64,000 nt of DNA from Eledone cirrhosa (taxonomy: Eukaryota), in NCBI GenBank assembly GCA_964016885.1, contig OZ024741.1, forward strand, positions 194,556,001-194,620,000, given 5' to 3'. The position numbers and the translations under genes were made by a program. Positions 61,179-63,339 of this stretch are shown one piece after another (the first letter of the stretch is position 1; every line of letters begins with the position of its first letter). Below the pieces are notes generated by a model. It did not search any database, was not told the DNA's origin, and worked only from the letters and a program-made list of their open reading frames with translations.

Positions 61179-63011
61179 AACACATGGTGTATTATTAAAG
61201 TTGCTGTTTTGTTACCATAGTAATAAGAAATCATACACAACAATATTTACAGAAGGAAATCAATAAACCACAGACCCATTTCTTTAGTTCACCATGAAAT
61301 GTCGTCTCTTCTTCTTTGCCCACTTATTCCTGAGAATGTCATGAGGGCAGAGTCATCAAACACTCCTTTCAAAAACAACCATTTCCCAAGCAAGACGAGC
61401 TGAGCCTATGGATGTTATCCAACCATCTCGCCCCGAGTCTACCCCTATGTCTCCAGCCAGTTGGTTTTACCTGTCACATCTGTTCATCGATTCTTTCCTG
61501 AGACATTCTAACCACATGCTCTTAGTATCAGAGCTGTGATCTCTCAATTCAGAGAAGTAGCGGCTCTACCTGGAGTGACTTTCTGATCTCCGAGTTATGC
61601 ACTCTATTGAGTAACGTTACTCCAAAGACCCAGTTGAAGGAACCCCATTTCAACTGCTTCTATTTGCGATCATATTCTTTTGGCCATTACTCAATAGTCA
61701 TGAGCATAGGCAAGGGTTGGCATGAATACTGAATTGAAAATAGCGAGTTTGGCTTTTACACCCACCTCTCTTCTTCTGATTACTGAATGCTGAAGCTAAT
61801 GCATTACTACACCAGCTCCTACAATTCTTGCACTTAATTCAGCCTCCTGTCTTGCGTCACTCATGAACATGGACCCAAGGTATTTGAATTTCTTCACCTG
61901 CTTCAGTGGAATTCAATTTACATGAAGAGTGCACTAAGTAGGCTTGCTTGCGAGGACAAATGTCTTAGATTTCACAGCATATTTTCATTCCAGCCATGCA
62001 GCACTCAGCATTAAACCTATCAAGTGCAAGTTAAAAATCACCTTCTCTCTGAGTCCTGTGTGCCTGGTGGCCTGGATCTCTGGAAAGGCACCTAAGCAAT
62101 TGGGAGTGATAATCCCAATTTTCAAAAAGGAAGGCAAGAGAAATTCTCCAATTATAGAGGGATCTCCTTGGCAAAGTCTATGCTAAGTGTCTGGCAAAGA
62201 GATGTAGGGAGATTGTCAAGTCTAAGCTAGATGTTGAACAGTGTGATTTTTACCCTAGATACAGCACAGCCAACCAAATATTCACACTATGGTAGGTCTG
62301 TGAGAAATAGTGGGAGTACAAGAGGTGTATTCTTGCTTTGTAAACCTCGAAAAGGCATATAACGCATTTCATGGGACCTGCTGTGAAAGGTTCTGCAGGC
62401 GTATGGAATCGATGGTCTGCTTCTTGTTGCCCTGATGTTTCTATTTGAATGCCTGAGTATTTGTGTTTGGATAAATGGTGTTAAACTGAAAACATTTGAG
62501 GGTGCATACTGTCAGTGAAATGTCGATAAAGCAAATTGGTTACCTGTGCCTTAGACAAGTAGCATTTCAGAGCATCAATTAATTACAATTAAATTTCCTA
62601 TAGAAGATCAGGTATCTGTTCACAATAGAATATCTGGTACCTGGTAATAGGTCTGGTCTCTATGTCCAATACATATATAGAATAAAGCATCCTACCCAGA
62701 TACACAACACTATGTGGATTTGTTTATCTGGTAGCCCTATGTTTTATCTGCTAAACACATTATGTACAAAACATTTTCTATACTTGACATACTAAGTATT
62801 TTCTCTAATCCTTCTCCTCCAAAATTGTAACTTATTGGACCTCATTTCCTGTGGGTAGAAAATTCTGAAAAAATAATAAGTGATTGATCCTTGAGATGGG
62901 GGGGGGGGGGGGGTTCTTCGAGACCCATGAGTAGGTGAAACATTCAGAAAAATCTAGAGAAAAATGAAACCATAATAATGTTTTACAATATTTCAGGGTT
63001 TTTCTCAGTGA
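35736..63011 (+). CDS. SELENOL: Selenoprotein L (thioredoxin/AhpC-TSA-like fold, UxxU motif), 10 exons, 313 aa, Sec172 and Sec175
   Basis: join(35736-35862,40227-40305,41374-41427,43740-43785,45557-45808,48577-48699,50555-50593,52324-52422,53079-53186,62997-63011). All GT-AG with consistent phases; 942 nt. LLLVFQRHFG-U-LP-U-RKHV and QMGGDFIIDQTGKILFTYRSQTPSDRPSVDQIL match the SelL family as I recall it; SECIS follows the stop. Confidence 0.92.
35979..36766 (-). mobile_element. tRNA-derived SINE interrupted by a foldback MITE
   Basis: SINE halves rejoin across 36025-36630. Confidence 0.8.
36025..36622. mobile_element. Foldback MITE, ~200-bp TIRs starting GGCACTACCATGC, 8-bp TSD CAGTGTAT (Merlin-like termini)
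   Basis: TIRs and TSD read directly. Confidence 0.8.
36845..38360 (-). mobile_element. Frameshifted non-LTR retrotransposon RT remnant, CRE-clade-like
   Basis: GAGIDGLRPQHLKD, LRPIAAGCTLRRLTAK, LGVGTRLGCEVAVHA, KLD..AFNSISR, WYLDD; GC-rich relative to host. Confidence 0.75.
40227..40305 (+). CDS. SELENOL: SelL exon 2 (DCLEDFLSSNMGKLFCLFLEYNTMFQ)
   Basis: TTTTCAG acceptor, AAG/GT donor, phases fit. Confidence 0.85.
41374..41427 (+). CDS. SELENOL: SelL exon 3 (SLGIENRKELDGHVGKHY)
   Basis: Poly-T acceptor, CAG/GTAAAT donor. Confidence 0.85.
41888..43220. repeat. 27-bp minisatellite (TTGGATATTGGTAGAATAGGTAGAGTA) inside a SINE head
   Basis: About 49 units; continues into SINE body at 43220-43405. 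Confidence 0.95.
43740..43785 (+). CDS. SELENOL: SelL exon 4 (RQSVIKDLADNLTEFE)
   Basis: TTTTAG acceptor, GAG/GTAATT donor. Confidence 0.85.
45036..45315 (+). mobile_element. Second tRNA-derived SINE family
   Basis: TGGCCTAGTGG A box, GGTTCGATTCC B box, CTTGAGCAAAACACTT and CCCTGCGATGGACTGGCGTCCTGTCCAGGG body motifs. Confidence 0.75.
45557..45808 (+). CDS. SELENOL: SelL exon 5 with two in-frame UGA (Sec) codons at 45764-45766 and 45773-45775
   Basis: AEWDQFIDTID...RHFG TGA CTG CCC TGA CGT AAA CAT...CM/GTAAGC; 252 nt. Confidence 0.93.
47134..48065 (+). mobile_element. RTE-clade LINE 3' fragment with (GAT)n tail
   Basis: [29 protein letters not shown]. Confidence 0.9.
48577..48699 (+). CDS. 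SELENOL: SelL exon 6 (SELKSSGCEVILVFFGPLESVKKWLIETKSSFPALQDSSKN)
   Basis: 123 nt, GT-AG. Confidence 0.92.
49663..49709 (-). ncRNA. Minimal hammerhead motif (CCGATGA core)
   Basis: AACTGTC-CCGATGA-GAATcattaaGTTT-GAAAT-acat-ATA-GGCAGTT; 7-bp helix I. Confidence 0.55.
50555..50593 (+). CDS. SELENOL: SelL exon 7 (LYSTLGLSRSVKK)
   Basis: 39 nt, GT-AG; Y..LGL motif typical of the fold. Confidence 0.9.
51500..52260. repeat. Degenerate tandem arrays (~55-bp RTE-tail-like unit, then ~65-bp unit)
   Basis: Recurring AAAAGCACCCAGTCCACCCTGTAAAGTGG and GGCCAGTT..GTACCCTGCTTGTAG motifs. Confidence 0.7.
52324..52422 (+). CDS. SELENOL: SelL exon 8 (VYCIETIQYYAAQKASHVALPTPYKGFNEDTYQ)
   Basis: 99 nt, GT-AG. 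Confidence 0.88.
53079..53186 (+). CDS. SELENOL: SelL exon 9 (MGGDFIIDQTGKILFTYRSQTPSDRPSVDQILGTLK)
   Basis: 108 nt; donor AAA/GTTTGT (the same GTTTGT donor is used in Sec23). Confidence 0.9.
53832..55925 (-). pseudogene. Gypsy gag-protease-RT polyprotein, truncated within RT
   Basis: Zinc knuckles CFFCGLSRHPRNKC and CYSCGKIGHWQSVC; protease ALIDPCS; RT RLVVDY, FDLNSAYHQ, AYIDNV. Confidence 0.85.
53890..56149 (-). mobile_element. Ty3/Gypsy LTR retrotransposon, 3'-truncated; putative 5' LTR 55979-56149
   Basis: LTR TGTTATG...CACAACA with AATAAA; gag-PR-RT ORF; no RNase H, integrase or second LTR. Confidence 0.85.
56601..56649 (-). ncRNA. Hammerhead motif, copy in the left inverted pLTR
   Basis: Reverse complement of 60881-60929. 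Confidence 0.75.
56958..59309 (+). CDS. Penelope-like RT plus GIY-YIG endonuclease (783 aa, N-terminally truncated, no ATG start)
   Basis: FDINSYYTSI, FDITMGSSD, GGLYRDDAL, VNFLDITL; CNCx5CPLxxKC linker; IIYSC...TYVGST..FKIRY..H; CNLC..E..LNKKSE...CQH. Confidence 0.92.
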   Translation: MRWRTFHYDRNRSNNVNNTNKFDSFGFKTFKSPPHNTLLNSFENDLVKLVKNIKYNKHHNRSNTFLNKLNTSINGFKTSNKIIVHADKTNNIYSLDYNTYRKFIYNELHKSYKKTTLKNLEDINIEGYNIVSKLGLQRHTQPFTPNPPRFSLKDHKEDFISNPSIRLICPSKSDIGIISKKILDKIIPQIKHKIHLKQWGNTGEVIEWFKDIKNNKDKKCIQFDINSYYTSISPILLNKALIMAMNNSDLTRAQIDVTLAARKTIITFEDQLWTRKDTHNNFDITMGSSDLAQVTDLVGLYLLNEIHKDLPYLNGGLYRDDALLLIEYKKFNIERTRKLLHKTFKNFNLSITMDKNTKNVNFLDITLYLDSKIYTPFHKPNEKLIYVDTKSNHPRSILNSISKGVSNRISSLSYDANIFSKNSQYYNQALARSGHNIEIEFLPKKTHSYNMISHNMSMRKPNNRNSNHKYTKAEGATGSNHYHGNYRSALGRNNTPDTKNKNRRRNNTFFNPPFNLNVSTNIPRAFFSLRDKNFPLGHKYHNLLNKNTIKISYSTTPNLAYHIASSNKSKINSYFQQTKSQQEVNLLNTSVASDHSNGSNNRNNTSIRNNTRVDNPNVQNPIATTQTSALHYNQQTNTQDNCNCRANRTCPLDKKCLTKDIIYSCTVTTSNSSETYVGSTSNCFKIRYNSHIHSFKKHSLANSTSLSSYIHYLKTKNKPYTLKWGVIGSATSYKPPNKFCNLCILETHNIIFSNRNLLNKKSEVFATCQHRFRHSFQNFKPNI
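60460..60646 (+). mobile_element. tRNA-derived SINE inserted in the right pLTR, 13-bp TSD TATATAAACAAGA
   Basis: TSD at 60447-60459 and 60647-60659; empty site visible in the left pLTR. Confidence 0.9.
60881..60929 (+). ncRNA. Type I hammerhead ribozyme motif in the right pLTR (CCGAAGA core variant)
   Basis: TGCT-CCGAAGA-aTCCAAACCtcGGTTTGGAg-GAAAC-agtt-GTA-AGCA. Confidence 0.75.
61310..62500. mobile_element. Decayed RTE-type LINE in two inverted parts (minus 61310-61945, plus 62050-62500)
   Basis: Minus strand: KQVKKFKYLGSMF...KAKLAIFNSVF; plus strand: VIIPIFKK, LEKAY. Confidence 0.65.
62997..63011 (+). CDS. SELENOL: SelL terminal exon, coding part (GFSQ-stop), followed by 3' UTR with SECIS and AATAAA signals (63266, 63292)
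   Basis: Acceptor ATATTTCAG at 62996, phase 0 matches exon 9, SECIS immediately downstream. Confidence 0.75.
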   Translation, partial: GFSQ

Positions 63012-63013
63012 TC

Positions 63014-63094
63014 TGAAGCATGTGGTATCTATGAAGGCCCTAGATAAAAGCAGTGATACTGAAAACTTTGGCCAGAAACTTCAACACGTCTTCA
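63014..63094 (+). promoter_or_regulatory. Type II eukaryotic SECIS element
   Basis: Helix I TGAAG(C)ATGTG/CACGTCTTCA; core ATGAA(63031)/AGAA(63074); helix II GGCC..AG.T/A.CT..GGCC; apical AAAA 11 nt after ATGA; mini-stem CAGT-gat-ACTG. Confidence 0.85.
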
Positions 63095-63339
63095 AACTAA
63101 TCCTTATTGATTTGTTTTTATTTACAACTAATACTACTATCGATTTTCATATTTATGTGTAGACACACATTGTAAGTATGCATATATGCATGTTCTTACA
63201 TACATATAATTATTTTATATCACTATATTTACTCTTTCAGATTTTAATTTTTTAACTGATTTTGGAATAAAAGTTTAGCGCATTCATTGAAAATAAAGGT
63301 GTTTTTTTTAATGAAACTTATTTTGTTTTGTTGTTTTTT

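Follow-up and report, generated by a model that had tools for sequence, protein, structure and literature searches.

A selenoprotein L-type gene of the cephalopod Eledone cirrhosa with a probable SECIS element in its terminal exon, beyond a retroelement-rich intron

Selenoprotein L (SelL, SELENOL) combines two selenocysteine (Sec) codons two residues apart, a peroxiredoxin-like domain, a single SECIS (Sec insertion sequence) element and an aquatic animal host, according to PMC13134290, PMC3316567 and PMC2397514, which cite Shchedrina et al. 2007; that one SECIS serves both Secs (PMC3316567). For molluscs, the accessible part of PMC3473315 lists no SelL for Lottia, and among the papers listed by literature searches, in a collection that leaves out most subscription journals, none shows a cephalopod SelL by title or by the start of the abstract. 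In the majority of vertebrate selenoprotein genes the SECIS lies wholly within the exon that holds the stop codon, and six vertebrate families carry it in a separate last or untranslated region (UTR) exon: SelH, SelT, SelV, SelW as well as TR3 have it in a last exon made up of UTR alone, and SelK has a last exon that contains all of its 3′ UTR (PMC3316567, section 14). Here we describe a SELENOL-type gene on the forward strand of a 64,000-nucleotide (nt) stretch of Eledone cirrhosa DNA (assembly GCA_964016885.1, contig OZ024741.1, positions 194,556,001 to 194,620,000; hereafter the window, in whose coordinates all features are given). A first-pass annotation of this DNA had placed the SECIS in a terminal exon of its own, 9.8 kb beyond the last large coding exon, and had proposed that the transposon-filled intron between them must be spliced out for Sec to be decoded. 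We consider it very probable that the gene is an ordinary, constitutively spliced SELENOL-type gene of an octopod, in which a single type II SECIS in exon 10 directs Sec into both UGAs.

The gene comprises ten exons between 35736 and 63316 (Table 1), with nine introns that are all GT-AG in our splice-site modelling of the window, and its conceptual product has 313 residues. Two in-frame TGA codons at 45764 and 45773, corresponding to residues 172 and 175, form a UxxU motif in exon 5. Exons 5, 6 and 9, the three window pieces that were submitted, match the NCBIfam family NF040769 (SelL_rel_redox) in collinear order. Pfam gave no match for exons 5, 8 and 9, and the AhpC-TSA match of exon 6 was sub-threshold; the ortholog P0005 (below) matches AhpC-TSA_2 at 61.1 bits (cut-off 27), and the homolog P0019, at 122, exceeds the NF040769 cut-off of 120.

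The two UGAs coincide with a break in the annotation of related proteins. Database records divide the Octopus vulgaris ortholog at the UxxU into two hypothetical proteins whose accessions are consecutive: CAI9730809.1 (P0001; 63% identity to our model) stops at the position of the first UGA, and CAI9730810.1 (P0005; 73% identity, no gaps) begins five residues past the second. Proteins from Argonauta (P0002, 57%) and Hyalella (P0004, 36%) likewise terminate at the first UGA position, and P0019 has W-x-x-W in place of the UxxU, as expected when TGA is read as Trp. No full-length homolog longer than P0005 was present among 143 candidates. With alignment A1, a metagenome scan returned 312 pattern matches and no relative, and a PDB sequence search returned no match. 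One of three matches in a further search, the repetitive 696-residue sequence P0003 (E 3.5e-5), was discarded as spurious and the other two were retained.

The junction between exons 9 and 10 had been predicted from agreement of splice phase, and this is borne out at every coordinate: the donor AAA|GTTTGT at 53186/53187 and the CAG acceptor, whose last base is 62996, share phase 0. The public sequencing run X1 contains one contig of 1285 nt that carries 45555-45807 at its positions 341-593 and 62997-63316 at 964-1283, with no differences, placing both in-frame UGAs and exon 10 in one spliced contig. Exons 5 to 9 add up to 621 nt, which equals 964 minus 343, so that exon 10 is predicted at 964 once the start of exon 5 is fixed at 343; this agreement supports, indirectly, the splicing of exon 9 to 62997. 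Independent support comes from protein sequence, in which the orthologous C-terminal fragments P0005 and P0011 have four residues following TLK, matching the tail of the spliced form, where read-through into intron 9 would give seven. On this tail, and on the lack of a SECIS behind exon 9, we rejected a main form in which exon 9 runs on into the intron. The comparison with run contigs covered 45400-63500, exon 1 lying outside it, and drew on four runs of one study, none recorded as RNA; X1 is taken as RNA solely because one of its contigs skips introns. Runs X2-X4 each cover 62883-63431 as one unspliced piece and, but for 0-2 gaps, confirm the sequence of the genome there.

Conserved coding sequence on either side of the two UGAs needs a SECIS, and the hairpin at 63014-63094, as the sole candidate that the roughly 300-nt 3′ UTR offers, is the probable one. 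It folds into a helix I, an internal loop, a UGAA/AGAA core (63032-63035 and 63074-63077), a helix II, an AAAA loop and a 4-bp helix III, with a tandem GA/GA core, an upstream RUGA and an unpaired AA 11 nt past the core, where a type II helix II is expected to span about 10-12 bp. Among 246 pattern starts of the AA and CC types on both strands of the window, this hairpin is the only one to pass our SECIS filter, which is of our own making and whose thresholds were set with the candidate already known. None of the 83 starts with CC-type apical loops passes; ten AA-type starts lie in 53150-63400, and the other nine fail, including all three in 53187-53830. The 18 matches that Rfam reports for 53150-53900 at E<=10 do not include a SECIS, so the first-pass statement that no convincing SECIS follows exon 9 stands. 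Shuffles of exon 10 yielded no pass in 2000. The first UGA is 17,267 nt from the SECIS core in the genome, close to the 17 kb given earlier, but in the mRNA the two UGAs are at an unremarkable 448 and 439 nt from it. This spacing exceeds the minimum of 51-111 nt, and the candidate lies within the 3′ UTR of the same contig.

Exon 10 is a real last exon at the distance that had been proposed, but it is not a SECIS-only exon, a reading that we rejected: it encodes four residues and the stop TGA at 63009-63011, 22 nt ahead of the SECIS core, and if this terminal UGA were recoded, 12 more residues would follow before a TAG. Both AATAAA signals reported behind the hairpin are present (Table 1). The second is probably the signal used; the X1 contig match ends at 63316, ahead of the GT-rich tract, and cleavage would fall near this point, although contigs cannot fix a 3′ end. 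Since the stop and the poly(A) signals share exon 10 with the SECIS candidate, dependence on intron 9 splicing is the same as that of any mRNA on its last exon, and the regulatory role implied for intron 9 is not supported.

We propose that exons 1-10 would be spliced to an mRNA of about 1.3 kb for the 313-residue protein. SBP2 and eEFSec insert Sec at UGAs, and the type II SECIS just past the stop would direct this insertion to the two UxxU codons 439-448 nt upstream of it. With a spacing inside the minimum of 51-111 nt (PMC3316567), the terminal UGA would be read as a stop; termination at this point would agree with the orthologs, which end at the same residue. By analogy with SelL, as characterised in PMC13134290 and PMC2397514, the product should be a redox protein capable of forming a diselenide. 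The short last exon probably predates the retroelements, whose insertion would merely have lengthened intron 9.

Set beside the described systems, the gene resembles SelL in its paired Sec codons two residues apart, its peroxiredoxin-like domain, its single SECIS candidate and its aquatic host; a diselenide is predicted. It also follows the majority vertebrate layout, with stop, SECIS candidate and poly(A) signals together in the last exon and a UGA-to-SECIS distance inside the published range of 207-5207 nt (PMC3316567); it departs from that layout in having only four coding residues in exon 10 and a 9.8-kb intron before it. With SelH, SelT, SelV, SelW, TR3 and SelK it shares an intron that separates the SECIS from nearly all of the coding sequence, and the distance from exon start to core (34 nt) is comparable to those of SelW (38 nt) and SelV (13 nt), but in these families the stop is in the preceding exon. 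The arrangement of exon 10 is thus ordinary, and a special dependence on the transposon-filled intron is not supported.

Several observations weigh against our reading, and they concern the family assignment, the transcript and the hairpin in turn. Each of exons 5, 6 and 9 alone scores below the whole-protein NF040769 cut-off of 120. No database match bears the name SELENOL, so that the assignment to the family draws on the motif, NF040769 and descriptions in the literature. The transcript evidence comes from one run of one study with the library type unrecorded. Of 1168 joints 15 are listed, without 53186-62997 among them, and the listed pieces do not include exons 6-9; the proposed junction check is therefore answered by length arithmetic, together with the ortholog tails. 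Finally, X1 also contains a 690-nt contig from within intron 9 (62193-62882, no differences), ending just before a G run, which could be pre-mRNA, DNA carry-over or a separate RNA and is unexplained.

That intronic contig can be fitted to a different account, in which growth of intron 9 by retroelements made the last exon a switch: a weak donor 9 would sometimes be skipped, cleavage favoured by the transposons would occur within intron 9, and a tissue- or selenium-dependent, SECIS-less and non-productive SelL mRNA would stop at the first UGA, in the manner of human SelS variant 1. Donor 9 matches the U1 consensus at 5 of 9 positions and acceptor 10 is the poorest in pyrimidines among the nine acceptors (0.55), yet the donors of the other introns range from 4 to 8 and donor 2 (4 of 9) is weaker still. 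Poly(A) hexamers do occur 255-630 nt into the intron (ATTAAA at 53442 and 53528, AATAAA at 53818), but such hexamers are common in this AT-rich intron, with 14 AATAAA and 11 ATTAAA across 53187-62996. Precedents exist in SelS and GPx3 (PMC3628699; PMC3316567, section 16), and the two human SelS variants (PMC3628699) would be the model for a SECIS-less form; here, only one 3′ end was observed. A single contig carries the mRNA across the site without a break, and the intronic contig comes from the distal end of intron 9 rather than from behind exon 9. Among the X1 pieces listed there is no SECIS-less isoform, and no piece or loose end at 53187-53830, with the limit that contigs show presence, not absence, and drop rare variants. 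Overall, we regard such a switch as improbable. If true, it would represent a transposon-made control on cephalopod selenoprotein output.

The remaining difficulties for an ordinary SELENOL-type gene lie in the hairpin itself, and they qualify its earlier description as a well-formed type II SECIS: the type II fold and its status as the only pass hold, but its details are less regular. The strict core UGAN/KGAW, as given in PMC3753652, is absent, an A in place of G/U preceding the 3′ GA; helix II has 7 of 10 positions paired, with adjacent C.U and U.U mismatches; and 46 of 200 shuffles fold as well (z-score -0.77), indicating no folding excess. The covariance model Rfam SECIS_1 (RF00031) matches over its full length (1-64), but at 17.3 bits (E 1.5) against a gathering score of 35, and a whole-window Rfam scan at E<=1 does not list the candidate. 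Shuffling of 64-kb strands yields 0.55 passes per strand (40 shuffles), so that the weight of the candidate comes from its position, not from its score. These features could mean that exon 10 is real while the hairpin is not a working SECIS, with the mRNA mostly stopping at the first UGA or using another signal. We find this very unlikely, since sequence conservation before and after the UGAs (63% and 73% identity to O. vulgaris, respectively) requires read-through, and the short 3′ UTR offers no other candidate and yields no pass when exon 10 is shuffled.

The description of intron 9 as transposon-filled proves apt, as about two-thirds of it is retroelement. One insertion is an LTR (long terminal repeat)-retrotransposon-type element whose bounds are given by loose DNA-contig ends at 53903 and 56150, with Pfam matches to RVT_1 (4e-25), RVP_2, Retrotrans_gag and zf-CCHC. 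The other is a putatively Penelope-like unit, so named on sequence motifs; its arms (56559-56886 and 60647-60971) are 99-100% identical, and its frame gives a weak GIY-YIG match (E 0.039) and no match in a PDB sequence search. Elsewhere in the window, a GIY-YIG-like C-terminal fragment at 15245-15715 (+) shows 33% identity to that of the intron 9 element. Without both insertions, intron 9 would be about 3.1 kb, a length inside the range of the remaining eight introns (0.66-4.4 kb); the insertions account for the distance, not for exon 10. Delivery of the SECIS exon by a transposon in the manner of SECIS-bearing Naiad elements, a general route proposed in PMC8557442, displacing an older element beside exon 9, might be suggested by the Penelope-like unit on the same strand 3.7 kb upstream, but it is extremely unlikely and was rejected, as the 794-residue frame has no in-frame UGA, 56559-60971 contains no passing SECIS, 62883-63431 has a DNA-contig depth of 5.5-10.3 (other unique pieces, 5.8-14.3; LTR element, 175-209), and the four-residue tail is common to orthologs. 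As neither insertion has a passing SECIS or a UGA frame, the Naiad route as laid out in PMC8557442 is inapplicable to either.

The value of the locus is modest. It provides a complete, transcript-supported cephalopod SelL gene model with a SECIS candidate, and it corrects the annotation of an O. vulgaris ortholog that is recorded in two pieces, divided at the UGAs. It is also a clean test case, in which a probable SECIS is missed both by a 3-kb window and by the Rfam cut-off. The warning that a fixed-window search would overlook the element is correct, as 3000 bp behind exon 9 do not reach it, but the caveat is already in print: Selenoprofiles scans 3000 bp downstream, retains SECIS-less predictions and gives long 3′ UTR introns as one cause of misses (PMC2958745, section 2.6). 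Knowledge of Sec decoding is unchanged, and only a regulated SECIS-less isoform, if true, would raise the importance of the gene.

Table 1. Features of the SELENOL-type gene and its ninth intron (window coordinates).
Feature	Position	Strand	Remarks
Exon 1, coding part	35736..35862	+	open frame, GT donor; first ATG of modelled frame, start predicted; O. vulgaris P0001 aligns from residue 14
Exon 2	40227..40305	+	AG/GT ends, frame maintained; homology to P0001 and P0002
Exon 3	41374..41427	+	AG/GT ends, frame maintained; homology
Exon 4	43740..43785	+	AG/GT ends, frame maintained; homology
Exon 5, UxxU	45557..45808	+	spliced contig of run X1, 0 differences; NF040769 positions 14-49, E 9e-11
Exon 6	48577..48699	+	NF040769 53-91, E 0.018; AhpC-TSA E 0.002, under cut-off
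Exon 7	50555..50593	+	alignment to P0005 without gaps
Exon 8	52324..52422	+	alignment to P0005 without gaps
Exon 9, redox domain end	53079..53186	+	NF040769 139-172 of 173, E 1e-10; donor GTTTGT at 53187
Intron 9	53187..62996	+	9810 nt, about 68% (about 6.7 kb) in two retroelements
LTR-retrotransposon-type gag-protease-reverse transcriptase frame	53832..56003	-	723 residues, ends before RNase H/integrase; element about 53903-56150
Penelope-like unit	56559..60971	+	794-residue frame at 56925-59309, free of in-frame TGA; flanked by roughly 330-nt inverted repeats
Exon 10, terminal	62997..63316	+	4 codons, TGA stop 63009-63011, SECIS candidate, poly(A) signals; run X1 contig positions 964-1283, 0 differences
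Type II SECIS candidate	63014..63094	+	core AUGAA at 63031, apical AAAA 63046-63049, 3′ core AGAA 63074-63077
First AATAAA	63266..63271	+	
Second AATAAA	63292..63297	+	end of the contig match 19 nt beyond it, followed by a GT-rich tract

Further features surround or interrupt the gene. A six-codon upstream frame at 35709-35729 (+) ends 6 nt before the modelled start and, should the contig begin near 35700, would belong to the 5′ leader. Intron 1 contains nested inverted repeats at 36045-36612 (43, 63 and 87 nt; 95-98%) that resemble a fold-back element, and two hairpin copies at 36286-36331 and 36473-36518 exceed the Rfam Histone3 cut-off, probably by chance, with no histone frame noted. The same intron has GC-rich, broken reverse-transcriptase-like frames at 36875-38443 (-), of which a 225-residue piece is without a Pfam match. 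Two long, strongly G-skewed minisatellite arrays with many repetitive open frames occupy 1-4900 and 41800-43270, the latter in intron 3. ARAGORN predicts no tRNA gene in the window, and an isolated, degenerate 5.8S rRNA copy lies at 24588-24722 (+; 90.9 bits), the window having neither an 18S nor a 28S match. On the opposite strand is a gene that we take to be Sec23-like, partly on its N-terminal sequence, with exons at 32846-33178 and at lower window coordinates, for example at 18167-18676 (zf-Sec23_Sec24, E 0.007). It stands head to head with the SelL gene, their first coding bases being about 2.6 kb apart.

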